A DNA stretch of 64,000 nucleotides from Mesotaenium endlicherianum (lineage: Eukaryota). The DNA lies in the NCBI GenBank assembly GCA_009602735.1, contig WELA01003378.1, forward strand, positions 3,712-67,711, in the 5' to 3' direction. The notes beneath the pieces are model-generated. The model did not search any database, was not told the DNA's origin, and saw only the letters and a list, made by a program, of their open reading frames with translations. A program made the translations under genes and the position numbers. This document shows positions 8,620-54,800 of the stretch, in pieces. Numbering within the stretch: the stretch's first letter is position 1; each line of letters starts with the position of its first letter.

Positions 8620-20174
<11,555 letters not shown>

Positions 20175-27351: not shown

Positions 27352-30300
27352 TTATAGAGGGGTACCAGTCGCCCAAAGGTGGAACCGTTTCAACGCCCCT
27401 TTGGCATTGGTCAGCTGGTTTTTAAATTCCCAAGTGTCCCCAGAGGCATCGTAACCCTTCCATCTGACCAGGTACTTCATGACATATTTAGATGATCGAC
27501 GGACAAGGCGAGCGTCTAAAATCTCCTCAACCTCATATTTCTCAGGGTCACCATCTCGGACAGCGGGGATCGGTCCCGGTTGGACACGTAATCGACCGGG
27601 AAACAGTGTGTATGGTTCTAGGAAAAAGACATTAAAGACTGGGTGACTCTCGTATTCTGCTGACAAGTTCAATTTGTAAGCATTCTGATTGACACGGCGC
27701 ACCACCGAATATGGACCGACCCAGACAGGACCAAGCTTTTTCTTGACCACACCAGGCAGGTACAGGTGCTGAGAGTGCAGTTTGACCAAATCGCCATTAG
27801 AAAATGTCAGTTCTCGACAAGGCTGATTAGAGTATTTTTGTTGGTTTTCCAGGGCTTTGTGCAGGTTCTGTTGGACTTTTGACAGGGTGTCGACAAACTC
27901 CTGGGTTAACTGGAGGGAGATCGGATTGTCAATCATTCAGGTTGAGTTGAAGACTCCCCTACTACATCTAAAGGAGACTTAGGGACTCTACCCAGGCTCA
28001 GTTCAAAAGGAGTCTTGCCCGTTGATGCGTGCACCGCACTGCTGATCGCAAACTGGATTTGAGGCAACAGGTCATCCCATTTGTCTTATTTTTGGTTAAA
28101 ATATGCCCTCAACACCTCTTCCAGAATTCGGTTAGTTCTTTCAGTCTGCCCATCAGTCTGAGGGTGATTTGCTATGCTGAGCAGCTGTTTGACTCCCATT
28201 AACCCCATTAAAGTTCTCCAGAACTTAGAGGTAAGTTTTGAGTCTCTGTCTAAGATGATATTAGAGGGTAGCCCATACTGGTATACTACATGGTTGTAGA
28301 ACTGCCTCGCTGTTTTGAGTGCAGTTACTTTGACAGTTGTGGGGATGAAAATGACCATTTTGTCAGTTTATCCACGACTACCAGTATCGAATCATGCCCA
28401 TTGGCAGTTCGTGGCAATGTGACCACCCAGTCCATGGATATTGTTTCCCAGCGGCCAGCTGGGATGGGCAGCGGTTGTAAGAGGCCTCCCGGTGGTGTGT
28501 GCCTAGACTTATTCTTTTGACATTGGTCACAGGACTTAACGTATTTCAAGACCTCCCGAGGTAATCCCTCCCAATGATAATGTTTTGCCAGTTTGCCAAC
28601 AGTTTTGGCCTGCCCCAAATGCCCACCCAGTAAACTGTCATGTGCTTGACTCAATAAAAGGGACCTTATGTCCACGTTATTAGGAATGACCAGCTTCAGC
28701 CTGCCTGAAGTGGTTTCAGTCACCCAGACCCCTCCCTTAAGCTTATACCCGAGTGCAGTAGCACGACACATACCAGTAGTGGGGCTGGGCTCAAATGTTG
28801 GGTCAGAAAGGTAGGCTTTCCTAAGTTGTTCAAGGAAGGACTTTTTCACCTTTAGTGAAGTGAGTGCACACAGGACTTTATCCACAGCATGCTGACTAAA
28901 GTTCCTTTCTTGCAAGTCAGGTCTTCTGGAGAGTGCATCAGCAGGATTTAACTTCCCTGGTTTGTAGTCGATCTGGACTTGGAACTGCTCCAGCATCTGG
29001 CTCCAGCGGTACTCCCTCCTCGACAGCTTGGACTTATTCTGAAAGTGAGTCGGAGCTAGACAATCTGTAGTTACCTTAAAAGCTTTACCATGTAAGTATC
29101 CTCTTAACTGTTTGAGCACATGAATGATAGCTAGCAGCTCTTTATCATGCACTGAGAAATTAATTTCTGCTGGATTAAATTTCATAGACTCATACAACAC
29201 AGGATGCCAATCCTGCCGTACCTTACCATCCTTTGTGGTTTTGTCAGCAGGCTGCAACAAAATAGCACCCATGGCAAAGTCAGAGGCATCAGTAACCACC
29301 TGCACCGGTTTGCTAGGGTCATACACGGCTAGCACTTGGGCAGAACATCTTTAAGGGTCTGGAAGGCAGCCTGCTGCTCTTCCCCCCACACATACCCTAT
29401 GTCTTTCTTAGTAAGGTCAGTCAGTTTACTGGCCTTTGTGGAATAATTCTCAATAAATCTCCTATAGTAGTTAGCCAACCCGAGGAAGGATCTAACTTTA
29501 GAGACAGACTGTAGTACTGGCCAGTCCCTTATGGTCTGGACTTTCTTAGGATCCACACTGATGCCCTTCTTACTGACAACGTGGCCTAAGAATTCAATAC
29601 TTTCCTTGAAGAAATCACACTTGCTCATTTTAGCATATAACTGATTTCTTCCCAAAATGTCCATGACTGTCTTTAAGTGTTCAGCGTGCTGAGTCTCATG
29701 TTTAGTGAAAATTAAAATATCATCCAAGAAGACTTGTACAAATTTATCCAAATAAGGCCTGAAAATGTCATTCATAGCACCCATAAAGGTGGCAGGAGCA
29801 TTAGTCAGTCCAAATGGCATCACGTTGAACGCACAGTGTCCACAACGTGTGCGGAAGGCAGTCTTGTGTTCATCCCCCTCAGCAATTCTGATTTGATGAT
29901 AACCACTCTAGAGATCAATCTTACTGAACACCTTAGCACCAGACAGGGTATCCAACAAGTCCTCAATTCTGGGTAAAGCATACTTGTTCTTTACTGTAAT
30001 TCTGTTCAGGGCTCTGTAATCCACACACATGCGCATACTGCCATCCCTTTTCTTAACAAATAGGATGGGTGCGCCGTAAGGTGATTTACTGGGAGAAATA
30101 TAACCATTTTCCTCAAGCTCTGCAATCTGTGTTTTCAACTCCTCGCTCTCCACATAAGACAAGCCATACGTGCGTTGCCAAGGTGGCTGACTCCCAGGTA
30201 ATAGATCAATCCTATGATCTACTTCCCTCTTAGGGGGTAGTCCTGGAGGCATATTAAATACATCCGTGTACTGAGCAACAATTTTTGCAGCAGTAGGGTG

Positions 30301-31140
30301 CTCCGGAGGGCTTACCTTTTTCTCCACCACTTCTTCAGGTTGAGGAGGTACCTCTCTTAGCAGCAGACAGAACATTCTGTCTTCCTTCTGGTTCCAGCTT
30401 TTGACGAACTCCATTGCATTCAGCAACTTGCATCCTCCTGGGAGCCTCTTCTTTTCCTTCATTTGCCATCCACACAGGACAAGAGGAAGAGCACTGGTGG
30501 GTGCCAAGTCAGTCTGGCCATCATTGGCTCCTCTCACTTTAACTGTACGTCTGCTCCAACACACTTCAGCTTGATGTCTAATAAGCCAGGACCTGCCTAG
30601 CACGAGATTAAAAAAGCCGGTGTTGAGTACCTCAAATGTAAGCGTTTAAATTAGAACTGCAATGCCAGAACCTAAAAGGACCTCAATAGGCCTGGTTATA
30701 ACTCCTCCCGGGATACGTGTGGCATCTCCAAGGAATATTTTTCTATTCCCTTGGGTGACAGGATGCAGCCTTAGCCGCTTAACTAAGTCCTTATAGATAA
30801 AAGTATGTGACGCCCCTCCGTCAACAAGTGCCCTAACCTTCCTACCTGCAATCATGCAATGCAGTAGGATAGGGGGGACTGTCTTTTCCTGACTTTCGCA
30901 TTGTTCTCCTGACTTAGCAAAGAAATGTTGGACATCAGGTGGAACAAGAGCATCCAGAGTGTGCACTCTCTGGATGTCTATATTGCTGATGGTCTCCTTT
31001 ATCTGTTTGTCAGGCATGCATAGTGAATCCAGTTCAGCAGGACCCATAATACCTGCTACGAGGGCAGCTAGTGACGACTCACTATCTCTAGCATCCTCAC
31101 AGTCATTAGATTGGAATATTGACTGTTGCTGTCTTTTAAA
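27352..31140 (-). pseudogene. pol: Ty3/gypsy pol (PR, RT, RNase H, integrase, chromodomain), multiply frameshifted
   Basis: [85 protein letters not shown]. Confidence 0.95.
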
Positions 31141-34100
31141 GGCTGGTCTTTTTTCTCGACCTTCGGAATGTGCCGGTCTGGACACTGCTCTCTGAAGTGA
31201 CCTGGCTGCTGGCAATGGAAGCAAATCGATTTTGCAGAGGCTGGCCTCGGCTTAGTCCTACCACCACCTCTTCCATAGCCGCCTCGAGAGAAACCACCTC
31301 TCCCTCTAGACTGCACAGCATTGTACTTATACCCATGTTCGTAGCCCTGATCATCCTCAGCCTGGTCTCCTTCAGTTGCATTGTAGGAACCGTGGGGCTT
31401 TTTGACAACCTTAGACACCAAAGCGTTACTCTGGCGCTTGTGATTGAACTGCTGCTGATCCCAGGCGTCAGCATCGTGGATCAAGTCAGCCAGTTTCTCA
31501 TACTTTTTCTCAGCAAAATGACCAGAGACCTCGGATTTCAAGCCATACCTGAAGTATGCTATCCTATACCGTTCTGGCAAATCAGGCTGCTTCATCATGT
31601 TCTCTTGGAACTTTTGAGCAAACTCAGCAACTGAAGTGGTCTGCTTCAGTGTCAGGGAGATCATCGCATAGATAGCTTTCTCCTGCTGGTTGATGACATC
31701 AAACTTCTCATGCAACTTCTCGACAAACTCTACCCACGTAGGGTCACCGAGTTGCCGAGCCTTACGCTCTTCCTTCCAGTAAAGCCACCAGTCTGCGGCA
31801 CTGCCTTTCAGTAGCGCACCGGTGTGCCTGACCTTCTCGTAATCTTGTAGTTCTGGGTAGTTCTCCAGCCACTGCTCAACATCCGCGAGAAACTTGATCA
31901 GGTAATATTTTCTGTTTCCCTCAGGATCATAGTCCAGGGGAGGTTTCGGCTTAGGCTTACTAGGCCCTCTGCCACCACCACCAGTGGTTTGAGACCCCAG
32001 TTGGTCTCTGTCCCGAAGTAGAGACATTATGATTCTTTTGTCCTCCTGTTGGGACTGATAAATGATGGACTGGTTCATTACACTATCACACTTAGATGCA
32101 TATCGAGGCAGTTCGCTGCTACCGAGTACGGAGTTCAGCTGGCTGTCAAAGAATGTGTCAGCAAGCTGACTTTAGTTAACTTCAGCCTGCTGCTTCCGGC
32201 TGAGTTGTTAAATTGATATTAAATATGAAGTCCAGCAGACTGATTACTAACTAGAGTTCAGCAAGCTGAACTTAATTAACTATTAATTTAAATAAATAGT
32301 ATATCTACTAATTTACTGATTCATTACACAATGGCAGCTGCCTCATCTGCAGCCTCTCTAGCTGCAGTATCTGCCACTGCTTCAGAATAGGTACGGGTTC
32401 TCGCTACATGGCTTTCAGCCTGATTTTCGACATTCTCGTTATCCTGGTTCTCCATGTCGCGGGAGTTGCTAGTTTGAGACCTTGTCCTTACCATACAAAG
32501 AAGACCGTGAAAACTGCTCCGATATCACTGAAATGAATCGACTTACCACATAGGCGATTAACAATAAAGTAAGATCTTTATATCAGCAAGCAATCTTTAT
32601 GGTATTTTTTGTTGATTGATTAAACAGCAAAGGACAACACACTAGCAGTGTACAATACTCGCAAGTCAAATGCAAGTAAACTAGCATCAATAATGCAATC
32701 AGTAAACTCATACATAAGCAAGGATAGAAGACAGTGCATATCAATGGCTTCCCGCCTTCGATCCAGATATCTCTCAGTAAGCAGTACAAAAGAGTTGGCC
32801 TCGTTTCCAAATGCCGAACTCGAGAGCAATGCCTAGCATATGTACATGGAATGAGTTTACTGTTCAACGGCCAGTGCGATGGCACCGCCTACCCGGGAGT
32901 TAACCACGTTGGTAGGACCTCGGTTAACCAAATCCACCGCCATCTCCCATCATCCCGAATCGCCATCCATCCCAAGGATGTCATCTGGCTATTCATCTAG
33001 CAAACCACACTTAGATGCATAGTTAGGCGGTTCGCTGTAATCGAGTACGGAAAGCAGCTGGCTATCAAAGAATATGTCACCAAGCTAACCTAAGTTGACT
33101 TCAGCCTGCTACTCTGGGCTGAGTCATTAAACTGATAAGTATATAAAGTCCAGCAGATTGAATGTTGACTGAAGTTCAGCAGGCTGAACTTAATTAAGTA
33201 TTATATGTAAATGAATATTATATCTACCAATATACTGATTCATTACAGTAAATTATTCATCTTGGCTACCTTTTTGGAAGATGCATGGGCAAAAAAGACA
33301 TTTGAACAGTATTACATAGAGATTGTCTTAGTCAGAACTGTGAGAAAAGAGGTCGTGAGGACTAAAAAGGAGAACTCATGACTCATAGAAGTGTTGTATG
33401 ACAAGGAAAAGGAGCAATGGGAGACATGGCAGGTTAGACAATACCCATCTACTGTGCCTAAAGAGTCCTGGTTTTATTCCGAGCCGCACGTAGTTCGTTT
33501 TGACTCGATTTCCTCAGGAGCCTCTCTGCTTTCAAGTTCGAGGGAGAATGAGGGTTAAAGTCTAATTTTGTCCTCCCAAGATTCAAATGATGACTCATAG
33601 CCAAGGTCTAGTGATGGTGAGGAGGAGGAGGAGGATGAGGAGGAAGAGGAGGAGGAGGAGGATACTATGAGGAAGAGGGGCAAGCCCGACACTGGAAGAG
33701 GTAAGCAGTTGATGCTCACTGTTCCTACTGTTAGAATGAGAAATGGGAGAGGAGGAGAAGGGCAATAGCTCCATAACCATAATTGCTCCATAACCATAAC
33801 TGCTCCAAACATTGTGGCGCACTACAAAACACACAAAGACGTTGTTGATCAATTTTACAAGCTCTATATGAGAGATAACTACTCTGTCGAGACTTCTGCT
33901 GTGGGCTTGAAGTGGTGGCACAAACTATAGTGGATCAGTTTGATGCTGCCCTGGCCAATGCCTACAACCTGGCCCATCCTGGGAGTGACAAGTATCCCTT
34001 CATGTTAGATGTTGTTGCGGAGATGATAGACTTCCATGATCCACATGAGGGAGGCGCTTTCGCTGGAGTGCGGGGCGGGCTGGGATGGACTGGATCCTAG

Positions 34101-35011: not shown

Positions 35012-35560
35012 TGATAAGAAAAGTCGTGTACAAGATAGGATAAGATTAGATCAGATCAGACTAGACTAGACTAGGCTCCCTCTACTTCTTTGTGCTTCCC
35101 ATTTATGCTTCAACTCTAAGTGTCCTCTCTAGCAAAGTACCTCCAGAACCTCTACTATGGCTCCTTCCATGTAGGTGACCTTGCCTTGTTGAACAAGCTA
35201 GCACACACACACGCACACAATCACATTCTAAAATATTCTACTACACATCCACTAACTCCTCAGGGAGTTTCTAGAAATTCCACAATCACTTTGGCACGCT
35301 ACGTAATTGTACGTAGTTTTTGGGACCCTCATGATTCAATGTCCTACTCTCTGGACTCCAACCGGGATTTTCGTCACTGGACCTTTCCTTGTCACTAAAT
35401 TGAATATGTGCCATTTAAAACTCAGTTAAAATTCCCAAAATCCATAACTTTCTCAATACTTATCCAAACGACTTGAAACAAAGTCCAAATTTTTTCTAGA
35501 ATTACACTCTATGCATATAGAATGCTATAAAAACTACAAATTACACTTTCATAACCTTCC
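35012..35560. mobile_element. LTR-like fragment of another family; boundaries approximate
   Basis: Its 3' part (AAAATCCATAACTTTCTCAATAC..TACACTCTA..) resembles the end of solo LTR 39093-39840. Contains AGAT/AGAC pentamer repeats near 35033-35074. Confidence 0.45.
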
Positions 35561-37145
35561 TAATGTCCTTTCTAGAAGATCTGATCTGCAAGAAAGTAAC
35601 TTTGGTCAGGATGCTGTTGATAGGGTTTTTTGTGCACTCACTTTACGTAAGGAGAAAAAGTCCTTCCTTGAACAACTTAGGAAAGCCTACCTTTCTGACC
35701 CAATATTTAACACCAGCCCAACTGAAGGTATGTGTCTTGCTATTACACTCGGTTATTAGCTAAAGGGATTGGTCTGGATGAATGAAACCACTTCAGGCAA
35801 GCTGAAGATGGTCATTCCTAAGAACTTGGAACTAAGGTCTTCATTATTGAGTCAAGCTCATGACAGTTTACTAGGTGGACACTTGGGGCAAGCCAAAATT
35901 GTTGGCAAACTGGCAAAACATTACCACTGGGAAGGGTTATCTTGTGAGGTCTTAAAATATGTTAAATCCTGTGATGAGTGTCAAAAAAACAAGGCCGGAC
36001 ACACACCATCCGGGGGGTTATTGCAACCATTACCTATCCCAGCTGAAAGATGGAAAACTATCTCAATGGACTGGGTGGTAACACTACCGAGAACCGCCAA
36101 TGAGCAAGATCCTATTTTGATAGTAGTGAATAAACAAACAAAGATGGTCATTTTTATCCCCACCACTGTGAAAGTAACTGCACTCAAAACGGCAAGACAA
36201 TTTATAAGAACGTGGTCTGCCTACATGGGCTACCCTCTAACCTCATATCCGACAGGAACTCAAAATGCACCTCTAAGTTTTGGAGAACATTAATGGAGTC
36301 AATGGGAGTCAAACAGCTGCTCAGCACAGCAAACCATTCTCAGACTAATGGGCAGTCTGGGAGAACGAACAGAGTTCTGCAAGAGGTATTGAGAGCTTAC
36401 ATATAAAAAAAAACAGGAAAATTGAATTGACTTGTTGTCTCAAATTCAGTTCGTTGTCAACAGCGCTGTTCATGCGTCAACGGAGAAGACTCCTTTTGAA
36501 CCTAGTCTGGGTAGAGTTCTTAAGTCCTCCTTAGATGTCCTAGGGGAACCATTGACTCACCCCAAAAAACTCGTGAATCCAATCTTCCTTCAGCTAACCC
36601 AGGAATTTGCTGACACCGTGTCAAAAGTTCAAAGGAACCTGTATAAGGCACAAGACACCCAACAAAAATACACTAATCAACACCGTCGAAAATTGACATT
36701 ATCTAAGGTGATTTGGTCAAACTGCACTGTACCTTCCCGGTGTGGTCAAGAAAAAGCTTGGTCCAGTTTGGGTCGGTCCATATTGGGTGGTACGTCGGGT
36801 CGTCAGAATGCTTACAAAATGAATATGTCGGCGAAATATGAGGAGCATCCAGTCTTTTATGTCTCTTTCCTGGAACCATATATCAAGGGTGATACATTGT
36901 TCACAGGTCGGTTACCTGTCCAACCAGGACCGGTCCCCGCCGTCCGAGATGGTCACCTTGAGGAGTATGAGGTGGATGAGATTTTGGAGGCTCGTTCCGC
37001 ACGTCGATCATCTAAATATGTCATGAAGTACCTGGTCAGATGGAAGGGATGCATCTGGTGACACATGGGACTTCAAGGACCATTTAGTATACGCAAAAGG
37101 GGCGTTGAAACGTTTCTATCTTTGGGAAGCTGGTATACTCCCATA
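35561..37145 (+). pseudogene. pol: Older family A pol fragment (integrase + chromodomain), 5'-truncated
   Basis: [56 protein letters not shown], with many stops and frameshifts. Confidence 0.93.
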
Positions 37146-37889
37146 ACTGTCATTGCAGTTGACGGGGACAGATGACAGGAAGTCCTGTCTCCATTTAAGA
37201 TGGATGGGCAGGTGACAGAAAGTGACAGTTTAGTGACGATTGTGACCAACAGTCCGTCAAGCCATTAAGATGGAGGGATTGTGACATCTTTTTGATAGTC
37301 AGGAAGCTGCCCTTACAAATATAAACTCACATTCAACCGCACTGTAACTCACTCATCACAGTGTTACATTCTTGGAAATACCTCTGTGTCAGGCTTATCA
37401 CTCCCACTCACTCCTCTCGCAAGGTAAATTAGGACAGGTTGTAACTACGTTCTTGCCCATTATGCCTCTACGGGTGTCCCATTATGCCTCTTCGGGTGTC
37501 CTGTACTCTACTCCTATACTAACTGAGCTATTGCATGTGTGAGCAGGATGACCAAACGGAAGAACGAACTTAACAGTAGATGGCTCGGTGCACCCTATAG
37601 GGTGCATATGACATATTTGGGTGCATGTATAGACCCCTCTAGTACAGGCCGCCATTTACTGTGTAGTTATCCATTTTCACTAAAATTAAGCTTAAACGAT
37701 TGCAAATGTCGCCGAGTAGCCGAGAATAAATTGGCGACCAAATCCGACGAGTTTTCACAAAGTTACAAGTGAAAACGTACACCCTCTGAATCGGTCTGAG
37801 CAAAAAATGAAACAGCGAATCTGCTAACTTTTGCGAGAAAGAAGAAGGAGAGCCTCTTCTTCTTCAAAACCTTTCTTACTCAATCCGCC

Positions 37890-41004: not shown

Positions 41005-41876
41005 CGGGTGCCTGCATTGACAGTTGAATTTAAAATTTTCATTACCATGGATTATAAGCATTATTTCATGTGTCATTTGGGAAATAAAGAATTTTTGGAC
41101 ATCATTAATTTATTTTTTCAATTAAAAATAAAAAAGAACACACCAGTGGGAAGACAAGACTGTACTTGTGTTGTGTATAAAACATCTTGACAAAAAACAT
41201 GATGAAATGCTCACAAAGAATGTATATGTACTTGACACTATTTGAGATCAAAATGCACCCGAGAAAAAGAGGCGCTCCTATGTGGGTGCATGTCCTTGGA
41301 TAGTTGTATCTTTGTCAATACTTCTCATATTAGTCCAAGATTTAAGGTACTCACTCATCATATGATAGGGCAGCCCTGGTCTAAATCCCAGGCCCTCAAG
41401 TATTGGCAATTACGAGATACAATGTCTCAAAGTTGGAGAAATATCGCGCGCTTATTCCAACATTATTAAATGCCATTTAAGTCATTACTAAAATTATATA
41501 TTAAATATAGAAGGTACGAAACCAGAAACCTTATGATGTGTACTTCTCGAAAAACTGATTCATGGCCCCATTGGACTTGTATTGTGAGCTATAGAAATTC
41601 CCAACCATGTGCTCAAAACGCACCCAAAAGTGTCAGTTCCACTGAGCCATCTAGTGTTAAGAGGAAGAGGAAGGCCAACCAGGCCCGGCAACAGTATCAA
41701 GAAGTCCAGGAGGACATTGAAGCCACTTCACTTTTAGGACGGGAGGTAGAACGGCAACAATTCAAGAAGGAGGCCAAGAAGAAAAGGGAAGATGAAGAAA
41801 GGGCCAGGAAAGAGGAGGGGGACGGGAAAGCTGAGGAGGCCAGACTCAAAAAAGCTAAGGAGGACGGGAAGGCTGA

Positions 41877-42565
41877 TATGATGAATCAGCATATTACTAG
41901 ATATAATATTCATTTAAATATAGTATTTAGTTCAGTCTGGTGAATCTTAGTAAATATTTTGGTTTGTTGGACTCTAAGTTAAATTCAGTATAATGACTCA
42001 GTCGAGGGCAGCAAGCTAAAGTCACCTTAGGTCAGCTTGCTGACACATTCTTTGACAGCCAGCTAATTTCCGTACTCGGTATCAGTTAATTTCCTAGATA
42101 TGCATCTATGTGTGATATCCTAGATGAATGGCCAGAGGACACCCTTGGATGGATGGCGATTCGGGATGATGAGAGATGGTTGTGGATGTGGTTAGCCAAA
42201 GTCCTACCGACGTGGTTAACTCCCAAGTAGGCGGTGCCATTGCACTCGCCGTCGAACAGGTTAGGTCATGCTCTCAAGTTCGGCATTTGAAAATAAGGCC
42301 AACTCTCTTGTACCGCTTACTGAGAGATATCTGAATCCAAGGCGAGAAGCCATTGATGCGAACTGTCCTCTGGCTGTGCTTATGTTAAGTTTGCTGATTG
42401 CATGATTGATGCTGATTTAGTTGCATTTGACTTCTAAGTACTGAAATGCTAGTTGTGGAGTCTTTGCTGATTACTAAATAACTAGATTAGAACTTAAATA
42501 TTACTTGCTGATATGAAGATCCTTTATTAATTGTTAAGCGCCTATCGGTAAGTCGATTCCTTTCA
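41877..42565 (+). mobile_element. Diverged solo LTR, family A (TSD GCTGA/ACTGA)
   Basis: TATGATGAATC...GATTCCTTTCA, homologous throughout to family A LTRs. Flanks match at 4 of 5 positions. Confidence 0.88.
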
Positions 42566-43639
42566 ACTGAGAAGGAGAGGCTGAGTAAGGCAGAAGAGGA
42601 AGCGAAAGTTCCAACTGGAGAGCTATCGCTATACAGTCCTGGGCAAGAGATTTGACCTTCTGCAGGAGGCACTGAAGTTTGCCCAGGAAAGCAGGGCAGC
42701 ATATCAGAGGGCAACCCTGCAAAGAGAAGGAGAGGGAGCTACACTCTGAGATCGGTATGGTCCAAAACGGCAAAAAACGCCCCAGACGTCGATCTCCGCC
42801 CATCTCCGCCCAAGGCGTAAACCTATTTGTCTCCACCTGTGTGCCTGAAAGTGGAGAGGTTTTCAACACTTTTCTCCACCCGTGTGCCTGAAGGTGTAGC
42901 AGATTTTAGCAATAAACGTGTAATGAATCAGTATATTAGTAGATATAATATTCATTTAGATATAATAGTTAATTAAGATCAGCCTGCTGAACTTTAATTA
43001 ATAGTCAGTCTGCTGGACTTTATATAATTATCAGTTTAATGACTCAGTCGGAAGCAGCAGGCTAAAGTCAACTTAAGTCAGCTTGCTGACACATTCTTTG
43101 ACAGCCAGCTGACTTCCGTACTCGGTAGCAGCGAACTGCCTCGATATGCATCTAAGTGTGGTATGCTAGATGGATGGCCAAATGACATCCCTATGATGGA
43201 TGGCGATTCGGGATCATGGGAGATGGCGGTGGATTTGGTTAACCGAGGTCCTACCAACGTGGTTAACTCCCGGGTAGGCGGTGCCATCGCACTGGCCGTT
43301 GAACAGTAAACTCATTCCATGTACATATGCTAGGCAATGCTCTCGAGTTCGGCATTCGGAAACGAGGCCAACTCTCTTGTACAGCTTACTGAGAGAGATC
43401 TGAATCCAAGGCGAGAAGCCATTGATACGCACTGTCTTCTAACCTTGCTTATGTATGAGTTTACTGATTTGCATTCTTGATGCTAGTTTACTCTCATTTG
43501 GCTGACGAGTATTATTCACTGCTAGTGCGTTGTCCTTTTGCCGTTAAACACTTAACGGAAAGTACCATAAAGATTACTTGCTGATATAAAGATCTTTATT
43601 AATTGTAAATCGCCTATTTAGTAAGTCGATTCATTTCAG

Positions 43640-43651
43640 TGGTATCGGAGC
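43640..43651 (+). promoter_or_regulatory. Primer-binding site for tRNA-iMet
   Basis: TGGTATCGGAGC one base after the LTR CA; canonical is TGGTATCAGAGC, so one G-U pair. Also at 53286 and 59127. Confidence 0.9.
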
Positions 43652-43672: not shown

Positions 43673-45151
43673 ATGGTAAGGACAAGGTCTCAAACTAGCA
43701 ACTCCCGAGACATGGAGAACCAGGATAACGAGAATGTCGAAAACCAGGCGGAAAGCCATGTAGCGGGAAACCGTACCTATTCGGAAGCAGTAGCGGATAC
43801 TGCAGCTAGGGAGGCTGCAGATGAGGCAGCTGCTATTGCCTCAGTCGCAGCTCAGCAAGCTGAGGAGGAGATAGCCAGACTAGAAGCTGAACAAGTAGCA
43901 AAGGCCGCTGAAGATATACAAAGGAGGGAAGGACAGCCAGCTGACGAGCGCACTGTTGAAGAACTTATGGCATCAAGGGCCAATGTTCTGAACCCACCTC
44001 CTGCCGTACAACTCAATGTACCCCTAGGTCAAATACGTGACCGGCTGAATGCGGCAGGAATTGCTGCTGCAGGAGCAAGAGGGATTGTTGAGGACACTAC
44101 TCAGCGAGTAGATGCCAATGCTGCTGCTGCATTTGCTAATCTACCACCCCAAAATGTAGACTTGGGAGCATTGTTCGTTCAGATGCAGTCGCAAATGGCG
44201 ACCATGTATCAGTCCCAGCAGGAGGACAAAAGAATCATAATGTCCCTACTCCGGGACAGAGACCAACTGGGGTCTCACACCACTAGTGGTGGTGGCCGAG
44301 GGCCTAGTAAGCCCAAGCCGAAACCTCCCCAGGACTATGATCCTGAGGGAAACAGAAAATATTACCTGATCAAGTTTCTCGCGGATGTTGAGCAGTGGCT
44401 GGAGAACTACCCAGAACTGCAAGATTACGAGAAGGTCAGGCACACCGGTGCGCTACTGAAAGGCAGTGCCGCAGACTGGTGGCTTTACTGGAAGGAAGAG
44501 CGTAAGGCTCGGCAACTCGGTGACCCTACGTGGGTAGAGTTTGTCGAGAAGTTGCATGAGAAGTTTGATGTCATCAACCAGCAGGAGAAAGCTATCTATG
44601 CGATGATCTCCCTGACACTGAAGCAGACCACTTCAGTTGCTGAGTTTGCTCAAAAGTTCCAAGAGAACATGATGAAGCAGCCTGATTTGCCAGAACGGTA
44701 TAGGATAGCATACTTCAGGTATGGCTTGAAATCCGAGGTCTCTGGTCATTTTGCTGAGAAAAAGTATGAGAAACTGGCTGACTTGATCCAGGATGCTGAC
44801 GCCTGGGATCAGCAGCAGTTCAATCACAAGCGCCAGAGTAACGCTTTGGTGTCTAAGATTGTCAAAAAGCCCCACGGTTCCTACAATGCAGTTGAAGGAG
44901 ACCAGGCTGAGGATAATCAGGGTGATGAATATGAGTATGAGTACAATGCTATTCAGTCTAGAGGTAGAGGTGGTCCCTCTCGAGGTGGCTATGGAAGGGG
45001 TGGTGGTAGGACTAAGCCGAGACCAGCCTCAGCAAAATCTACTTGCTACCATTGTCAGCAGAAAGGCCACTACAGAGAACAGTGTCCGGTCAAGCACCTG
45101 CCTAAGGTCGAGAGAAAAGACCAGCCTTTAAAAGACAGCAACAGTCAGTAA
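43673..45151 (+). CDS. gag: Gag (492 aa) with CCHC zinc knuckle
   Basis: [41 protein letters not shown] tract, [14 protein letters not shown]. Confidence 0.95.
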   Translation: MVRTRSQTSNSRDMENQDNENVENQAESHVAGNRTYSEAVADTAAREAADEAAAIASVAAQQAEEEIARLEAEQVAKAAEDIQRREGQPADERTVEELMASRANVLNPPPAVQLNVPLGQIRDRLNAAGIAAAGARGIVEDTTQRVDANAAAAFANLPPQNVDLGALFVQMQSQMATMYQSQQEDKRIIMSLLRDRDQLGSHTTSGGGRGPSKPKPKPPQDYDPEGNRKYYLIKFLADVEQWLENYPELQDYEKVRHTGALLKGSAADWWLYWKEERKARQLGDPTWVEFVEKLHEKFDVINQQEKAIYAMISLTLKQTTSVAEFAQKFQENMMKQPDLPERYRIAYFRYGLKSEVSGHFAEKKYEKLADLIQDADAWDQQQFNHKRQSNALVSKIVKKPHGSYNAVEGDQAEDNQGDEYEYEYNAIQSRGRGGPSRGGYGRGGGRTKPRPASAKSTCYHCQQKGHYREQCPVKHLPKVERKDQPLKDSNSQ

Positions 45152-48100
45152 TCCAGTCTACTGACTGTGAGGATGCTAGAGATAGTGAGTCGTCACTAGC
45201 TGCCCTCGTAGCAGGTATTATGGGTCCTGCTGAACTGGATTCACTATGCATGCCTGACAACCAGATAAAGGAGACCATCAGCAATATAGACGTCCAGAGA
45301 GTGCACACTCTGGATGCCCTTGTTCAACCTGATGTCCAACATTTATTTGCTACGTCATTAGAACAATGCGAAAGTCAGGAAAAGACAGTCCCCCCTATCC
45401 TACTGCATTGCATGATTGCAGGTAGGAAGGTGAGAGCATTTGTTGACGGAGGGGCGTCACATACTTTTATCCACAAGGACTTAGTTAAGCGGCTAAGGCT
45501 GCCTACTGTCACCCAAGGGAATAGAAAAATATTCCTTGGAGATGCCTCAAGTATCCCGGGAGGAGTTATAACCAAGCCTATTGAGGTCCAGTTAGGTTCT
45601 GGCATTGCAGTTCTAACTGAAACGCTTACATTTGAGGTACTCAACACTGGTTTCTATGATCTCGTGCTAGGCACGTCTTGGCTTATTAGACATCAAGCTG
45701 AAGTGTGTTGGAGCAGACGTACAGTTAAAGTGAGAGGAGCCAATGATGGGCAGACTGACTTGGCACCCACCAGTGCTCTTCCTCTTGTCCTGTGTGGATG
45801 GCACATGAAGGAAAAGAAGAGGCTTCCAGAAGGATGCAAGTTGCTGAATGCAATGGAGTTCGTCAAAAGCTGGAACCAGAANNNNNNNNNNNNNNNNNNN
45901 NNNNNNNNNNNNNNNNNNNNNNNNNNNNNNNNNNNNNNNNNNNNNNNNNNNNNNNNNNNNNNNNNNNNNNNNNNNNNNNNNNNNNNNNNNNNNNNNNNNN
46001 NNNNNNNNNNNNNNNNNNNNNNNNNNNNNNNNNNNNNNNNNNNNNNNNNNNNNNNNNNNNNNNNNNNNNNNNNNNNNNNNNNNNNNNNNNNNNNNNNNNN
46101 NNNNNNNNNNNNNNNNNNNNNNNNNNNNNNNNNNNNNNNNNNNNNNNNNNNNNNNNNNNNNNNNNNNNNNNNNNNNNNNNNNNNNNNNNNNNCAAAATGG
46201 NNNNNNNNNNNNNNNNNNNNNNNNNATCCTATTTGTTAAGAAAAAGGATGGCAGTATGCGGATGTGTGTGGATTACAGAGCCCTGAACAGAATTACAGTA
46301 AAGAACAAGTATGCTTTACCCAGAATCGAGGACTTGCTTGATACCTTGTTTGGCGCTAAAGTGTTCAGTAAGATAGATCTCAAGAGTGGTTATCATTAAA
46401 TCAGAATTGCTGAGGGGGATGAACACAAGACTGCTTTCCGCACACGTTATGGACACTATGAGTTCAACGTGATGCCATTTGGACTGACTAATGCTCCTGC
46501 TACCTTTATGGGTGCTATGAATGACATTTTCAGACCTTATTTGGATAAGTTTGTGCAAGTTTTCCTGGATGATATTTTAATTTTCTCTAAAGATGAAGCT
46601 CAGCACACTGAACACTTAAAGAAAGTGCTGGACACTCTGCGGAAAAATCACTTGTATGCTAAAATGAGCAAGTGTGATTTCTTTAAGGAAAGTATTGAAT
46701 TCTTAGGCCACGTTGTCAGTAAAGAGGGCATCAGTGTGGATCCTAAGAAAGTCCAGACCATAAGGGACTGGCCAGTACCACAGTCTGTCTCTGAAGTTAG
46801 ATCCTTCCTCGGGTTGGCTAACTACTATAGGAGATTTATTGAGAATTATTCCACAAAGGCCAGTAAACTGACTGACCTTACTAAGAAAGACATCGGGTAT
46901 GTGTGGGGGGAAGAGCAGCAGGCTGCCTTCCAGACCCTTAAAGATGCCCTTTGTTCTGCCCCAGTGCTAGCCGTGTATGACCCCAGCAAACCGGTGCAGG
47001 TGGTTACTGATGCCTCTGATTTTGCCATGGGTGCTATTTTGTTGCAGCCTGCTGACAAAACCACAAAGGATGGTAAGGTACGGCAGGAGTGGCATCCTGT
47101 GTTGTATGAGTCTATGAAATTTAATCCAGCGGAGATTAATTACTCAGTGCATGATAAAGAGCTGCTAGCTATCATTCATGTACTCAAACAGTGGAGAGCA
47201 TACTTACATGGTAAAGCTTTTAAGGTGATTACAGATCATCTAGCTCTGACCCACTTTCAGAAGAAGTCCAAGCTGTCGAGGAGGGAGAACCGCTGGAGCC
47301 AGATGCTGGAGCAGTTCCAAGTCCAGATCGACTACAAACCAGGGAAGTTGAATCCTGCTGATGCACTCTCTAGAAGACCTGACTTGCAAGAAAGGAACTT
47401 TAGTCAGCATACTGTAGATAAAGTCCTGTGTGCACTCACTTCACTAAAGGTGAAAAAGTCCTTCCTTGAACAACTTAGGAAAGCCTACCTTTCTGACCCA
47501 ACATTTGAGCCCAGCCCCACTACTGGTATGTGTCGTGCTACCGCACTCGGGTATAAGCTCAAGGGAGGGGTCTGGGTGACTGAAACCACTTCAGGCAGGC
47601 TGAAGCTGGTCATTCCTAATAATTTGGAAATAAGGTCTCTCTTACTGAGTCAAGCTCATGACAGTCTCCTGGGTGGACATTTGGGGCAGGCCAAAACTGT
47701 TGGCAAACTGGCAAAACATTATCATTGGGAGGGGTTACCCCGGGAGGTCTTGAAATATGTCAAGTCCTGTGACCAGTGTCAGAGAAATAAGTCTCGGCAC
47801 ACACCACCCGGAGGTCTCTTGCAACCGCTACCCATCCCAGCGGGACGCTGGGAAACTATATCCATGGACTGGGTGGTCTCACTACCAAGAACTGCCAACG
47901 GGCATGATTCAATACTGGTAGTCGTGGATAAACTGACAAAAATGGTCATTTTTATCCCCACAACTGTCAAAGTGACTGCACTCGAAACAGCGAGACAGTT
48001 TTACAACCATGTAGTATGCCAACATGGGCTCCCTTCTAATATCATCTCAGACAGAGACTCAAAATTCACCTCTAAGTTCTGGAGAGCTTTAATGGGGTTA

Positions 48101-48961
48101 ATGGGAGTCAAACAGCTGCTCAGCACAGCAAACCACCCTCAGACTGATGGGCAGACTGAAAGAACTAACCGAGTTCTGCAGGAGGTGCTGAGAGCATATA
48201 TTAACCAAAAACAAGATAATTGGGATGACCTGTTGCCTCAAATTCAGTTTGCGGTCAACAGTGCGGTGCACGCGTCAACGGGCAAAACTCCTTTTGAACT
48301 CAGCCTGGGTAGAGTCCCTAAGTCTCCTCTAGATGTGCTAGGGGAATCTTTAACTCACCCTGAAGGGATTGACAACCCGGTCTCCCTCCAGTTAACTCAG
48401 GAGTTTGCTGACACCCTGTCAGAAGTCCAACGAAACTTGCACACGGCCCAAGAAAACCAACAAAAATACGCTAATCAACACCGTCGGGAACTGACATTTT
48501 CCAAGGGGGATTTAGTCAAACTGCATTCTCAGCACCTGTACCTCCCTGGTGTGGTCAAGAAAAAGCTTGGCCCTGTCTGGGTCGGTCCATATTCGGTGGT
48601 CCGTCGTGTCGGTCAGAATGCTTACAAACTGAACATGTCAGCTGAATACAAGGGGCACCCGGTCTTTAATGTCTCCTTCCTGGAACCGTACATCAAAGGT
48701 GATACACTGTTCACAGGTCGGTTCCCTGTCCAACCGGGACCGGTCCCCGCTGTCCGGGACGGCGACCCTGAGGAATATGAGGTCGATGAGATTTTAGACG
48801 CTCGCTCGGTCCGTCGATCGTCTAAATATGTCATGAAATACCTCATTCGATGGAAGGGTTACGATGCCTCTGGGGACACTTGGGAGTTTAAGGACCACTT
48901 GACCAATGCCAAAGGGGCGTTGACACGGTTCCACCTTCGGGCCGCTGGAGTCCCTCCATAA
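45127..48961 (+). pseudogene. pol: Pol in -1 frame to gag (PR-RT-RH-INT-chromodomain); one premature stop at 46397-46399 and an N gap
   Basis: All Ty3/gypsy motifs in order. TAA replaces the CAA seen in the 61.86-kb copy. C-terminal chromodomain [25 protein letters not shown]. Confidence 0.93.
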
Positions 48962-49228
48962 CTGTCATTTCAGTTGACACGGGAAGGTGACAGGCGGTCC
49001 TGTCTCCATTTAAGTTGGAGGGGAAAATATATGACAGTTAGTGAGCGAGAGCGATAAAAACACACTCATACGTTTATGTGTAGCGCATCGCAACTACGTC
49101 AACTTTTAGCAATCATCCTGTAAGGTAAACAGCAGCGAAGCCACTATACTAAATACTAACATACTTCCTGCAATCCCTATGACAAAGGTCCATATCCTAC
49201 TAACTTGTGCCCTGGTTACATGTGCAGG

Positions 49229-50905
49229 ATGGCGCCCACCACACAAAAGGAGGACAGAAAGCGCAAGGCAGAAGAAGCCAGGAGGACAATGGAGCAATAC
49301 CAGAAGGAGCTGGCGGCGACGTCCCTCACCAGGAGAGAACAAGAAAGGGTCCGCAAACAACAAGAGGCGGCAGAAGAGGCACAGAGGAAGAAGGATCAGG
49401 AAGCGGAAAACCTCAGGAAGGCTGAGGAGGAGAGACAGAAGAAACAGCAAGAAGAAGCGGCAGCGGCAGAAGAGGAGAAAAGAAAAAAGATTGAAGCGGA
49501 CAGACAGAAGAGCTTGGCCACTTACAGGTATACTGTGGTGGGTGGCCAAAACTTCGATAACCTGAAGGAAGCATTGCTGGCAGCCCAGGAGATCAACAGG
49601 CTGGAACAGACAACACTGCTACAGAAGGAAGGAGCTACAGCACTGGACAGGTACATCGAGACACACACCGGCGTGGTCCTTTACGAAGATTATGCTAAGA
49701 TGGTGGGCTATACAGCAGAGCAGGCCCGGTATCTCGCAGATGATTCAGAGGACAAGCCGGTCCCCATACCGGGAATAGTGGGAGATCAGAGACTCATCCG
49801 GATGGTGAGCATGCGGCCCGATAGCTTTAAGGATACGGTATTCTACCTCACACTCCTGCCAGCTTACAATGAAGTTGAGAGAAGGAGCTGGGAGTACTTG
49901 GCCAGGGAAGCAGGACAGCAGATGTTCTCTCCCCACTGGTTCCCGTGTAAACTGAGGAAGGCTGAGCACGGACCCCAGTACTACCAGCAGCCAACAGACT
50001 GGAGGTGGATGACCGTCACAAATAAGAAGCAGGAGTGTGACCGAGCCCAACCGGATGACTTCCACTATGGCCTAGACGGCTATCTCATCCTACCACCTCA
50101 CATTGCCCCTTGGGACCCCAGGCTGAATGGATGCCTGAGCAATATGAATGCAGAGACCAAGGAACATAGGAGGAGGGGAAGAGACTACTTCTCTAAGGGA
50201 AAGCATGCCTTTGTCAAATGGGCAAAGAATGCAGGCCGGATAGATATCAGTAGGCTGAAGGCCAAGCAACCTCCAGCGCGCCCTAAGAAAGGGAGGTCGG
50301 TAGACTACTCCATGTCTACTAGGGAGCAGGACGACTTAGTGGACGAGACCCCTACTCTCTCCGAGGAGGAGGATGAGGAGGATGAGGAAGAAGAACAAGG
50401 CAGAGGAGAAGCATCAGCAGCAGGTACTCAGGATACCCAGGGAGAGGCAGTGGCACTTCCTAAAGAACCACGATCAGGTGTGTGGAATGTGATCCCCGTT
50501 ATGGCGACAACTGGACCCCGCGCTCGCTCCCCCAGCCCACCTGCCCAAGCAGGGGAAGAAGCTGATCTGACGGTACTGGGCAGCAGACACAGACAGAAAT
50601 CCCCAGAGGACAGGGGTGCCAGAAGAGGGACACGCGGGTGGGCCAGAGGTATGCCAGCCTCCCCCTCCGCTCAGGGGCATGTACCTCTAGCCAATGTATT
50701 TCAGCATCCTACTGGAATGCCTGTCTATGTGGGAATCAACACCCAAATAGTTGAAGAGCAGGCCACCATCCTCCGTTCTCCCCGAGGGCCAACTTTAGAG
50801 CAAACAGGGTTCTTTAGAAGGCAAGCTGACAGACCTAGAGGGCTGTCCAGATCTAGGTCCAGATCTCCGTCTCCTGATCCTGAAGCACCAGGAACAACCC
50901 CTTAA
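49229..50905 (+). CDS. ORF3 variant 1: intact 558-aa protein of unknown function in the 3' region of the retrotransposon
   Basis: Open frame with ATG right after the acceptor of predicted intron 49125-49227. Basic motif plus E/K/R/Q coiled-coil, Trp-rich core, acidic tract and RS/SP tail; homologous to two other variants in the window. Confidence 0.88.
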   Translation: MAPTTQKEDRKRKAEEARRTMEQYQKELAATSLTRREQERVRKQQEAAEEAQRKKDQEAENLRKAEEERQKKQQEEAAAAEEEKRKKIEADRQKSLATYRYTVVGGQNFDNLKEALLAAQEINRLEQTTLLQKEGATALDRYIETHTGVVLYEDYAKMVGYTAEQARYLADDSEDKPVPIPGIVGDQRLIRMVSMRPDSFKDTVFYLTLLPAYNEVERRSWEYLAREAGQQMFSPHWFPCKLRKAEHGPQYYQQPTDWRWMTVTNKKQECDRAQPDDFHYGLDGYLILPPHIAPWDPRLNGCLSNMNAETKEHRRRGRDYFSKGKHAFVKWAKNAGRIDISRLKAKQPPARPKKGRSVDYSMSTREQDDLVDETPTLSEEEDEEDEEEEQGRGEASAAGTQDTQGEAVALPKEPRSGVWNVIPVMATTGPRARSPSPPAQAGEEADLTVLGSRHRQKSPEDRGARRGTRGWARGMPASPSAQGHVPLANVFQHPTGMPVYVGINTQIVEEQATILRSPRGPTLEQTGFFRRQADRPRGLSRSRSRSPSPDPEAPGTTP

Positions 50906-51003
50906 GGTGACACGCTGAAGAGGCAGTCAGTAAGGGAGGCTGGTCAGGATCAGTTTCTTTATTTAAAGCTTTTGCAGTTTAATGTTGTCGAGGCGACAAC
51001 AAG

Positions 51004-51018
51004 TTAAGTTGGAGGGAT
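51004..51018 (+). promoter_or_regulatory. Polypurine tract
   Basis: TTAAGTTGGAGGGAT directly before the 3' LTR TG; same at 52421-52435 and 25192-25178 (-). Confidence 0.85.
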
Positions 51019-51830
51019 TGTAATGAATCAGTATATTAGTAGATATAATATTCATTTAAATATAATAGTTAATTAAGTTCAGCCTGCTGACCTTTAGTTA
51101 TTAGTCAGTTTGCTAGACTCTAGTTAATAGTCAGTTTGCTGAACTTTACTTAATAGTCAGTCTGCTGGACTTTACATAATTATCAGTTTGCTGACTCAGT
51201 GGAAAGCAGCAGGCTGAAAGTCCATATAAGTCAGCTTGCTGACACATTCTTTGACAGCCAGCTGACTTCCGTACTCGGTAGCAGCNNNNNNNNNNNNNNN
51301 NNNNNNNNNNNNNNNNNNNNNNNNNNNNNNNNNNNNNNNNNNNNNNNNNNNNNNNNNNNNNNNNNNNNNNNNNNNNNNNNNNNNNNNNNNNNNNNNNNNN
51401 NNNNNNNNNNNNNNNNNNNNNNNNNNNNNNNNNNNNNNNNNNNNNNNNNNNNNNNNNNNNNNNNNNNNNNNNNNNNNNNNNNNNNNNNNNNNNNNNNNNN
51501 NNNNNNNNNNNNNNNNNNNNNNNNNNNNNNNNNNNNNNNNNNNNNNNNNNNNNNNNNNNNNNNNNNNNNNNNNNNNNNNNNNNNNNNNNNNNNNNNNNNN
51601 NNNNNNNNNNNNNNNNNNNNNACGCACTGTCTTCTAACCTTGCTTATGTATGAGTTTACTGATTTGCATTATTGATGCTAGTTTACTCTCATTTGACTGA
51701 CGAGTAGTATTCCCTCCTATTGTATTGTCCTTTGCCGTTTAACGAGTTAACGGAAATACCATAAAGATTACTTGCTGATATAAAGATCTTTATTAATTGT
51801 TAATCCTATTTGGTAAGTCGATTCATTTCA

Positions 51831-54800
51831 GATACCCAGGGACAGGCAGTGGCACTTCCTAAAGAACCACGATCAGGTGTGTGGAATGTGATCCCCGTTA
51901 TGGCGATAACTGGACCCCGCGCTCGCTCCCCCAGCCCACCTGCCCAAGCAGGGGAAGAAGCTGATCTGACGGTACTGGGCAGCAGACACAGACAGAAATC
52001 CCCAGAGGACAGGGGTGCCAGAAGAGGGACACGCGGGTGGGCCAGAGGTATGCCAGCCTCCCCCTCCGCTCAGGGGCATGTACCTCTAGCCAATGTATTT
52101 CAGCATCCTACTGGAATGCCTGTCTATGTGGGAATCAACACCCAAGTGGTTGAAGAGCAGGCCACCATCCTCCGTTCTCCTCGAGGGCCAACTTTAGAGC
52201 AAACAGGGCTCTTTAGAAGGCCAGCTGACAGACCTAGAGGGCTGTCCAGATCTAGGTCCAGCTCTCCGTCTCCTGACCCTGAAGCCCCAGGAACAACCCC
52301 TTAAGGTGACACGCTGAAGAGGCAGTCAGTAAGGGAGGCTGGTCAGGTTCAGTTCNAGGTCAAGTTCAGCTACCTTATTTAAAAATTTCTGCAGTTTAAT
52401 GTTGTCGAGGCGACAACAAGTTAAGTTGGAGGGATTGGAATGAATCAGTATATTAGTGGATATAATATTCATTTCAATATAATAGTTAATTAAGTTCAGC
52501 CTGCTGAACTTTAGTTAATAGTCAGTCTGCTGGACTTTACATAATTATCAGTTTAATGACTCAGTCGAAAGCAGCAGGCTGAAAGTCCATATAAGTCAGC
52601 TTGCTGACACATTCTTTGACAGCAAGCTGACTTCCGTACTCGGTAGCAGCGAACTGCCTTGATATGCATCTAAGTGCGATATGCTAGATGAATAGCCAGA
52701 TGACATCCCTATGATGGATGGCTATTCGGGATGATGGGAGATGGCGGTGGATTTGGTTAACCGAGGTCCTACCAACGTGGTTAACTCCCGGGTAGGCGGT
52801 GCCATCGCACTGACCGTTGAACAGTAAACTCATTCCATGTACATATGCTAGGCATTGCTCTCGAGTTCGGCATTCGGAAACGAGGCCAACTCTCTTGTAC
52901 AGCTTATTGAGAGAGATCTGAATCCAAGGCGAGAAGCCATTGATACGCACTGTCTTCTAACCTTGCTTATGTATGAGTTTACTGATTTGCATTCTTGATG
53001 CTAGTTTACTCTCATTTGGCTGACGAGTAGTATTCCCTGCTAGTGCGTTGTCCTTTTGCCGTTAAATAGTTAACGGAAAGTACCACAAAGATTACTTGCT
53101 GATATAAAGATCTTTATTAATTGTTAATCGCCTATTTAGTAAGTCGATTCATTTCATTTATTCACTGCTAGTGTGTTGTCCTTTGCCGTTTAACAAGTTA
53201 ACGGAAAATACCATAAAGATTACTTGCTGATATAAAGATCGGTATTAATTGTTAATTGCCTATTTGGTAAGTCGATTTATTTCAGTGGTATCGGAGCCTT
53301 TATCACAGTCTTCTTTGTATTGTAAGGACAAGGTCTCAAACTAGCAACTCCCGAGACATGAAGAACCAGCATAACGAGAATGTCAAAAACCAGGCAGAAA
53401 GCCTTGTAGCGGGAACCCGTACCTATTCGGAAGCAGTGGCAGATACGACAGCTAGAGAGGCTGCAGATGAGGCAGCTGCTATTGCCGCAGTCGCAGCACA
53501 GCAAGCTGAGGAGGAGAGAGCCAGACTAGAAGCTGAACAATTAGCAAAGGCCGCTGATAATACAAAAAGGAGGGAGGGACAGCCAGCTGACGAGCGCACT
53601 GTTGAAGAACTTATGGCATCAAGGGCCAATGTTCTGAACCCACCTCCTGCTGTACAACTCAATGTACCCCTAGGTCAAATACGTGACCGGCTGAATGCGG
53701 CAGGAATTGCTGCTGTAGGAGCGAGAGGGACTGTTGTGGACACTACTCAGCGAGTAGATGCCAATGCTGCTGCTGCATTTGCTAATCTACCACCCCAGAG
53801 TGTAGACTTGGGAGCATTGTTCGTTCAAATGCAGTCGCAAATGGCGACCATGTATCAGTCCCAACAGGAGAACAAAAGAATCATAATGTCTCTACTGCGG
53901 GACAGAGACCAACAGGGGTCTCAAACCACTAGTGGTGGTGGCCGACGGCCTAGCAAGCCCAAGCTGAAACCTCCCCAGGGATATGATCTTGAGGGAAACA
54001 AAAAATATTACCTGATCAAGTTTCTCGCGGATGTTGAGCACTGGCTGGAGAACTACCCAGAACTGGAAGATTATGAGAAGGTCAGGCACACCGGTGCGCT
54101 ACTGAAAGGCAGTGCCACAGACTGGTGGCTTTACTGGAAAGGAGAGCGTAAGGCTCGGCAACTCGGTGACCCTACGTGGGGAGAGTTTGTCCAGAAGTTG
54201 CATGAGAAGTTTGATGTCATCAACCAGCAGGAGAAAGCTATCTATGCGATGATCTCCCTGACACTGAAGCAGACCACTTCAGTTGCTGAGTTTGCTCAAA
54301 AGTTCCAAGAGAACATGATGAAGCAGCCAGATTTGCCAGAACGGTATAGGATAGCATACTTCAGGTATGGCTTGAAATCCGAGGTCTCTGGTCATTTTGC
54401 TGAGAAAAAGTATGAGAAACTGGCTGACTTGATCCAGGATGCTGACGCCTGGGATCAGCAGCAGTTCAATCACAAGCGCCAGAGTAATGCTTTGGTGTCT
54501 AAGATTGTCAAAAAGCCCCACGGTTCCTACAATGCAGTTGAAGGAGACCAGGCTGAGGATAATCAGGGCGATGAATATGAGTATGAGTACAATGCTATTC
54601 AGTCTAGAGGTAGAGGTGGGTCCTCTCGAGGCGGCTATGGAAGAGGTGGTGGTAGGACTAAGCCGAGACCAGCCTCAGCAAAATCAATTTGCTTTCACTG
54701 CCAGCAGCCAGGTCACTTCAGAGAGCAATGTCCAGTCAAGCACCTTCCTAAGGTCGAGAAAAAAGACCAGCCTTTAAAAGACAACAACAGTCGGTAATCC

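Follow-up and report, generated by a model that had tools for sequence, protein, structure and literature searches.

A third gene, ORF3, situated between pol and the 3' LTR of a chromovirus of Mesotaenium endlicherianum, encodes an orphan protein that is old and under purifying selection and, most likely, has been exchanged as a cassette between near-identical gag-pol backbones. The element belongs to a retrotransposon nest in a 64,000-nucleotide stretch of contig WELA01003378.1 (hereafter, the window), where all three family copies with a visible pol 3' end, A, B, and C, carry the gene. Taking the evidence as a whole, we consider it somewhat better than an even bet that ORF3 is a genuine accessory gene, maintained by selection, that is subject to PPT-to-PPT cassette exchange, possesses a leader intron and an internal promoter, and encodes what is predicted to be a nuclear factor binding nucleic acids or chromatin. 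A sense extra gene between pol and the 3' LTR is already known; what is new here, in that we found no paper describing it, is that the protein is an orphan, that its cassette has a leader intron and is bounded by PPTs, and that saturated types coexist on a single backbone.

The window consists of GC-rich host genes, at 1-20 kb, followed by a nest of one Ty3 family. In copy A, the 5' LTR (42919..43638, plus strand, with TGTAATGA...TTTCA ends) precedes a primer-binding site, TGGTATCGGAGC (43640..43651, plus), which we take to be tRNA-Met-like, followed by gag (43673..45151, plus), with a Ty3 capsid and a CCHC knuckle, and pol (45106..48961, plus), the frame of which overlaps gag and encodes protease, RT, RNase H, integrase, SH3, and chromodomain; the 3' LTR occupies 51019..51830 (plus). 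The order, gag and then PR-RT-RH-INT, is that of Ty3 elements, and LTRs, PBS, PPT, and a 5-bp target-site duplication (TSD) are all present in the family. A cluster of seven TGAC/GTCA motifs in the first 260 nt of the copy A 5' LTR, compared with a shuffle mean of 1.7, was reached in none of 1000 shuffles. The chromodomain at the integrase C-terminus (48776..48934, plus; Pfam PF00385, E 1.3e-8, 35.1 bits against a cut-off of 25.1) makes the element a chromovirus of the Ty3/gypsy group, and it has Y, W, and Y at the positions that we presume to form the aromatic cage. In REXdb, to judge from the accessible part of its description, chromodomains with this Y, W, Y cage are restricted to non-seed plants, most Tcn1 elements lack a tRNA-type PBS, and most Chlamyvir elements lack overlapping gag and pol, both unlike the element described here (PMC6317226). 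In a tree built with 120 relatives from databases (the best of them 51% identical), the element was placed apart from Closterium proteins and had no well-supported sister; these proteins had the top bit scores, but the tree does not bear them out as nearest kin.

The family has also left solo or partial LTRs, at 21559-22102, 22633-23331, 41877-42565, and 32084-32329, some with 5-bp TSDs, a pattern of repeated self-insertion as would be expected of a chromodomain-targeted cluster. A further copy, D (58381-64000), the ORF3 of which would fall beyond the window end, has a gag identical to that of copy A over 492 codons and a 99.8% identical pol, with an LTR only 94% identical, and is either a very young sibling of copy A or a collapsed assembly. 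Nested among the family copies is also a minus-strand fragment of a different Ty3 family (55648-58380), with a Ty3 capsid match in gag and a decayed pol.

ORF3 of type A spans 49229..50905 on the plus strand (558 aa; ATG at 49229, stop at 50905), after the pol stop at 48961 and before the terminal PPT, exactly where an earlier, sequence-only reading had noted a sense ORF of this length; with 558 codons, it is a sense extra 3' ORF of the aORF-3S, or eORF-3'F, kind. That reading also placed homologues at the same position in a minus-strand copy (B) and an old copy (C), and tblastn confirms both, with 37% identity over 576 aa (E 1e-106) for the ORF starting at ATG 26994 on the minus strand in B, and N-terminal pieces at 41662-41874 and 42591-42758 in C. 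Copy B is a gap-free, full-length insertion (24344..33247, minus) flanked by the 5-bp TSD TTTAC; it is decayed, its LTRs differ at 50 of 708 sites, and two frame changes and a stop break the reading frame of its ORF3 (25345..26994, minus). Copy C (35469..37569, plus) retains the 3' part of pol, internal PPT copies at 37196 and 37266, a predicted intron (37424-37546), and the first ORF3-C codons (ATG 37548), with more pieces at 41661..42749 (plus) that are interrupted by the solo LTR at 41877-42565 and end short at about 42750. Only about 130 N-terminal residues of ORF3-C are kept; the copy is interrupted by this solo LTR and by a piggyBac-like DNA transposon (DDE_Tnp_1_7; 37570-41660) inserted in TTAA within the first ORF3-C codons. 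A second type-A ORF3, a 3' fragment 96% identical at the amino acid level, occupies 51831..52304 (plus) and is followed by a PPT and an LTR (52436-53156).

Three variants had been proposed to share one gag-pol backbone, with closely aligned gag, pol, and LTRs. This is true of A and B, whereas C sits on a more distant backbone, with a pol 73-86% identical to those of A and B and no C gag or LTR seen. The variants were also thought to share mainly islands of similarity, but the A-B core proved continuous, with 118 of 265 residues identical (45%); all the sequence motifs that had been named are there, although DYA.MVGYT and the later ones rest on two sequences, C ending early.

The divergence of ORF3 far exceeds that of pol, as had been claimed. 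Between A and B, gag to RNase H is 94-95% identical, and nucleotide identity in 300-nt windows is 0.88-1.00 from gag to RNase H, 0.87-0.92 in the integrase, and 0.60-0.69 in ORF3. At fourfold sites, A and B differ at 30 of 311 positions across gag to RNase H and at 40 of 191 across integrase plus chromodomain; in the core of ORF3, they differ at 31 of 44 (p 1e-17 against gag to RNase H), a level indistinguishable from random (p 0.49). The pol of A and that of C differ at dS 0.3-1.2, that is, less than the ORF3s of A and B. The protein is nevertheless conserved: identity at the three codon positions is 0.60, 0.68, and 0.41 (position 2 versus 3, p 1e-9), and the LWL85 method gives dN 0.43 and dS 1.8, for a dN/dS of about 0.24, with dS saturated under NG86. 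ORF3 is, therefore, under purifying selection, in line with the earlier suggestion of a selected module. None of the three outcomes set beforehand as counting against that suggestion, namely, a match to a known family, dN/dS near 1, and ORF3 divergence no greater than that of pol, was observed.

Whether the module is fast-evolving or exchanged had been left undecided, and the data favor exchange over fast evolution because not only synonymous sites but also non-coding flanks are saturated: the leader regions of A and B are 50-57% identical after alignment and the 3' UTR is unalignable, so that the entire 2-kb block is old, beyond the protein alone. It could be argued that nothing was exchanged and that ORF3 simply outpaces gag-pol under conflict with the host, given that A-B divergence climbs gradually toward ORF3, from dS 0.09 in RNase H to 0.27-0.45 along the integrase, and that extra ORFs are either very fast-evolving or separately acquired according to the accessible part of the REXdb study (PMC6317226). 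However, saturation of synonymous sites, leader, intron, and 3' UTR is not expected from protein-level positive selection, dN is below dS, and identity returns at the hairpin and PPT that close the block, all of which renders this explanation very improbable. The same climb would be expected if repeated template switching homogenized the backbone up to a non-recombining block. We hold with good confidence that template switching in reverse transcription would homogenize gag-pol between subfamilies, whereas the unalignable cassette could not recombine internally, such that old ORF3 types would persist as alternatives. With three copies, tree incongruence is weak: A, B, and C are nearly equidistant in ORF3, close to a star, and grouping sites counted in two pieces number 10 and 9 for B+C, 11 and 5 for A+C, and 7 and 2 for A+B. 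Copies B and C both have a double internal PPT.

A more mundane possibility is that an assembly chimera of high-copy subfamilies paired different ORF3s with one backbone. Copy A lacks a TSD and is scaffolded across N gaps, one in pol (45882-46225) and one inside the 3' LTR (51286-51621), its gag is the same as that of D, A-B identity is patchy (0.883-0.997 in neighboring windows), and poly-G runs occur elsewhere in the window; collapsed assembly may, accordingly, inflate the similarity of the A and B backbones. Nevertheless, copy B is gap-free with a TSD, and in copy A, a single gap-free piece (46226-51285) spans the 3' half of pol, ORF3, the PPT, and the start of the LTR. One DNA run contains both ORF3 types in highly repeated form, with summed contig depths, which are not copy numbers, of 0.18-0.54 million for ORF3-A and 0.10-0.19 million for the ORF3-B core, together no more than the 0.6-0.9 million of pol. 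By this rough measure, RT/RNase H depth at 92% likeness equals or exceeds that of the two ORF3 types added together, which suggests that both reside on A-like backbones. Furthermore, 20 runs of 7 studies, with no RNA run among those listed, contain at least half of the ORF3-A words, although one of these may be the source of the sequence. We consider a chimera quite improbable and exchange of the cassette the better account.

The cassette extends from PPT to PPT. On the left, a block of 63 nt that starts right after the pol stop and ends with the first internal PPT (48962..49024, plus; PPT copy at 49011-49023) is 82-87% identical across the three copies, and the likeness fades shortly downstream. 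On the right, likeness returns at a hairpin (50983-51001; z -3.56, reached in 0 of 200 shuffles) next to the terminal PPT (51005-51018), the two together forming the edge at 50983..51018 (plus). Of the 8 PPT motifs in the window, 3 precede LTRs and 5 closely follow pol. The hairpins at the internal PPTs are weak (z -1.5, -0.9, and -2.8), and among the regions after pol, only that of C has a significant TGAC cluster (reached in 1 of 1000 shuffles, compared with 43 for A and 119 for B). The internal PPT may be a relic of where the element once ended, or it may serve as a primer for a second plus strand; we would give an even chance to an origin in which the cassette was added behind an ancestral pol-PPT end. 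The leader resembles the LTR only at the PPT itself, which lends no support to a degenerate internal LTR as its source. Sireviruses offer a parallel: those with a third ORF likewise repeat the PPT, as identical extra copies, in the stretch separating pol from the 3' LTR. As far as the accessible text of that report goes, however, these are Ty1/copia elements, and 56 of 63 upstream PPTs are located downstream of the env-like gene (PMC2829016); in the present element, they precede ORF3 and sit at the edge of the cassette.

Between the internal PPT and ORF3-A lie a putative internal promoter with a short non-coding first exon (49025..49124, plus) and a 103-nt GT..AG intron (49125..49227, plus) that contains a CTAAC branch-like motif and ends one base before the ATG. 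The intron signals, an AAG|GTA donor, CTRAC, and GCAG|GATG, recur in all three copies; before ORF3-B, the intron is 108 nt long (26996..27103, minus), with internal PPT copies upstream at 27302 and 27233. The type-A intron was predicted from sequence before a contig of run X1 (a DNA run, its kind guessed) was found to skip exactly 49125-49227, GT to AG. This joint, in a single contig and with a 3-nt microhomology, has a depth of 473, the highest among the 15 of 68 joints listed. For type B, a single contig skips 108 nt at a depth of 52 (among 15 of 25 joints listed), with the cut 3 nt off and one mismatch. Intronless DNA copies thus demonstrate the intron for type A and, more weakly, for type B, and most plausibly arose when genomic RNA was spliced and then reverse-transcribed.

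The local donor, along with TATA-like boxes that are weak in A and clearer in B and C, points to a predicted internal promoter, the RNA start of which was not seen. It seems fairly likely that a subgenomic mRNA would be initiated from this TATA-like promoter after pol and terminate in the 3' LTR. Alternatively, ORF3 might act post-transcriptionally, as an RNA-binding or particle-associated, Rev-like protein involved in export, splicing control, or chaperoning of genomic RNA, and be spliced from the LTR transcript, as are the known sense aORFs of Bagy2 (PMC7264820). The RS/SP tail and the basic patch of the protein would suit such a role, and, in B and C, the pyrimidine-rich stretch that precedes the donor AG|GT could double as an acceptor; yet the RSRSRS run is short and is missing at the ORF3-B end, in frame with the C-terminal motif, and the conserved donor 100-120 nt upstream and the TATA-like boxes in B and C are more in keeping with a local promoter. 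This scenario appears rather unlikely to us, and a local promoter remains our preferred reading. PolyA RNA yielded no reads within 49031-50900 of ORF3-A in all three runs (6-12% of each run read), as opposed to 137, 160, and 96 reads on a 5.6-kb stretch, and only about one-fold depth near the ORF3-B 5' end in two runs. Most element RNA reads are only 90-95% alike, so that the RNA may derive from another strain or from other copies. Reads of diverged copies also pile up on the 3' end of the LTR (51649-51830), with the first mate on the plus strand and a start at 51725 in two of three runs, and are possibly antisense or read-through LTR transcripts.

The layout of the protein is much as had been described from the sequence: a basic KRK motif, a charged helical region (residues 1-95), a Trp-rich core (95-355), an acidic tract, and an RSRSRSPSP-type RS/SP tail. 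The core, of 260 residues, is rich in conserved Trp, Pro, His, and Arg and may represent an undescribed fold; ORF3-A further displays a basic patch at 301-355, a second conserved motif near residues 480-500, and 8 SP sites, and the KRK-type motif is found at the N-terminus of A, B, and C. The stated lack of a signal peptide or TM helix also stands, the N-terminus being hydrophilic and hydrophobic segments absent (maximum 19-residue hydropathy of 0.73 in A and 0.69 in the first 354 residues of B). One could envisage that ORF3 encodes an env-like protein, a movement protein, or an enzyme captured from the host, given the sense orientation and env-like position of the gene and a weak thymidylate kinase match (E 0.38), but the protein has no membrane segment and is thus not env-like, the kinase match is not significant, and no host homologue was detected among 1.84 billion representatives; we deem this origin highly improbable. 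The kinase likeness, over core residues 6-83, was rejected, with no P-loop visible upstream and no such Pfam family; a Myb/MADF likeness of RRSWEYLA...PTDWRW was backed by no search.

Searches for relatives were blank. The ORF3 core matched none of 2459 candidates of near length, the C-terminal part none of 852, and a two-sequence profile none of the 1.84 billion representatives at E 0.001; none of 212 pattern matches in metagenome contigs was confirmed, Rfam gave no match, and Pfam, PHROGs, NCBIfam, and PDB sequences gave only weak, composition-level matches. No described retrotransposon accessory or env family was matched in Pfam or among these representatives. At the sequence level, PF03078, PF04195, and PF10536 (Athila ORF1, Transposase_28, and plant mobile domain) gave no match at E 0.1 or E 10. 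These collections are poor in eukaryote retrotransposon ORFs, so that blank searches do not prove novelty. AlphaFold2 models built from two sequences had mean pLDDT of 36 and 50, and with the second, poor and pLDDT-limited, fold searches reached best values of E 8.3 and 3.2 with Foldseek and Z 2.9 with VIA.

Downstream of 80 metagenome loci with related integrases (35-45% identity), the ORF3 profile found no match (best E 3.9). At least 1500 nt of downstream sequence was available at 29 of the 80 loci, with an ORF of at least 200 aa in 24 of these 29; among 25 downstream ORFs scanned (13 of 38 were left out), 15 were gag, one pol, one Mo25, and 8 had no match. The preponderance of gag implies that most of these loci are permuted assemblies. 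Long ORFs behind related integrases at L066:5271-7415, L076:3898-5184, and L016:1936-3285 have no Pfam match and are either divergent gag or other extra ORFs. A scan of viral contigs with the integrase found nothing.

The function of ORF3 can be approached through composition and precedent, which suggest, at somewhat less than an even chance, a nuclear regulator of the element's own expression, with a role at the RNA level as the main rival. The product is predicted to be oligomeric and nuclear and would promote expression of the element itself, by transactivation or anti-silencing, a step for which our confidence likewise falls a little short of even. It is the composition of the protein that hints at the anti-silencing or RNA-processing role raised by the sequence-only reading. 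Distinctly unlikely, in our estimate, is the stronger version, in which ORF3 would be a sequence-specific anti-silencing or transactivating factor, with ancient, interchangeable alleles under their own promoter in a PPT-bounded cassette; were it true, the family would change its counter-defense module while retaining one replication machine. The VANC proteins of VANDAL, lineage-specific accessory proteins with a coiled coil, offer a possible functional analogy; they are encoded by DNA transposons, are structurally related to MAIN according to the accessible part of the source, and have no sequence link to ORF3 (PMC13547354).

Extra 3' ORFs had been held to be untypical of chromoviruses, but this does not withstand comparison with REXdb, where, in the accessible part, 18% of 782 Tekay chromoviruses have a sense one between pol and the 3' LTR, compared with 74% of SIRE and 22% of Retand elements; none are listed there for Chlamyvir, Tcn1, Galadriel, Reina, or CRM, and among the proteins of extra ORFs, no more than 21.4% have a match to a known domain (PMC6317226). 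Sense and antisense extra ORFs of plant retrotransposons have been reviewed, and their function was called unknown (PMC7264820). ORF3 shares position, orientation, heterogeneity, and the usual lack of known domains with plant aORF-3S or eORF-3'F, as far as those sources are accessible (PMC6317226, PMC7264820), but differs in having no membrane segment and none of PF03078, PF04195, and PF10536, and in the two saturated types on one backbone. In maize, gene23 of Grande, which encodes a nuclear protein and has its own promoter (PMC7264820), is likewise an accessory gene between pol and the 3' LTR; unlike ORF3, it is antisense and belongs to a non-chromovirus, and the likeness is one of descriptions, partly accessible, rather than of sequence (PMC7264820, PMC11963269). 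The env of Oikopleura Tor3b/4b is a sense third ORF with an internal promoter after pol, as proposed for ORF3; however, in the accessible text, Tor Env is a transmembrane glycoprotein, with an mRNA lacking evidence of splicing (PMC4402516), whereas the ORF3 protein is hydrophilic and its gene contains a leader intron. The literature covered, which excludes subscription journals, describes neither the family reported here nor any chromovirus whose third ORF has been exchanged.

The role of extra 3' ORFs in retrotransposons of the plant lineage is an open question (PMC7264820), and the window presents a natural swap experiment, in which two very old ORF3 versions, each with its own leader, are joined to near-same gag-pol and LTRs and are both repeated in one genome. 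Because the backbones are so nearly the same, type specificity is testable with reporters.

The host portion of the window contains a GC-rich C2H2 zinc-finger gene (PF12756; 4034-7803, plus), presumably REI1/REIL-like, and an intron-rich, GC-rich gene at about 8600-20100 (minus) that we take to be calcium-activated potassium channel-like. Together, these genes point to a streptophyte alga or a green plant without seeds. Within the span of the second gene, a 950-nt poly-G run at 15189-16138 is probably a sequencing artefact. Also present are a 329-nt unit repeated five times in tandem at 416-2031 and a tRNA-Thr(CGT) at 3415-3486 (minus).
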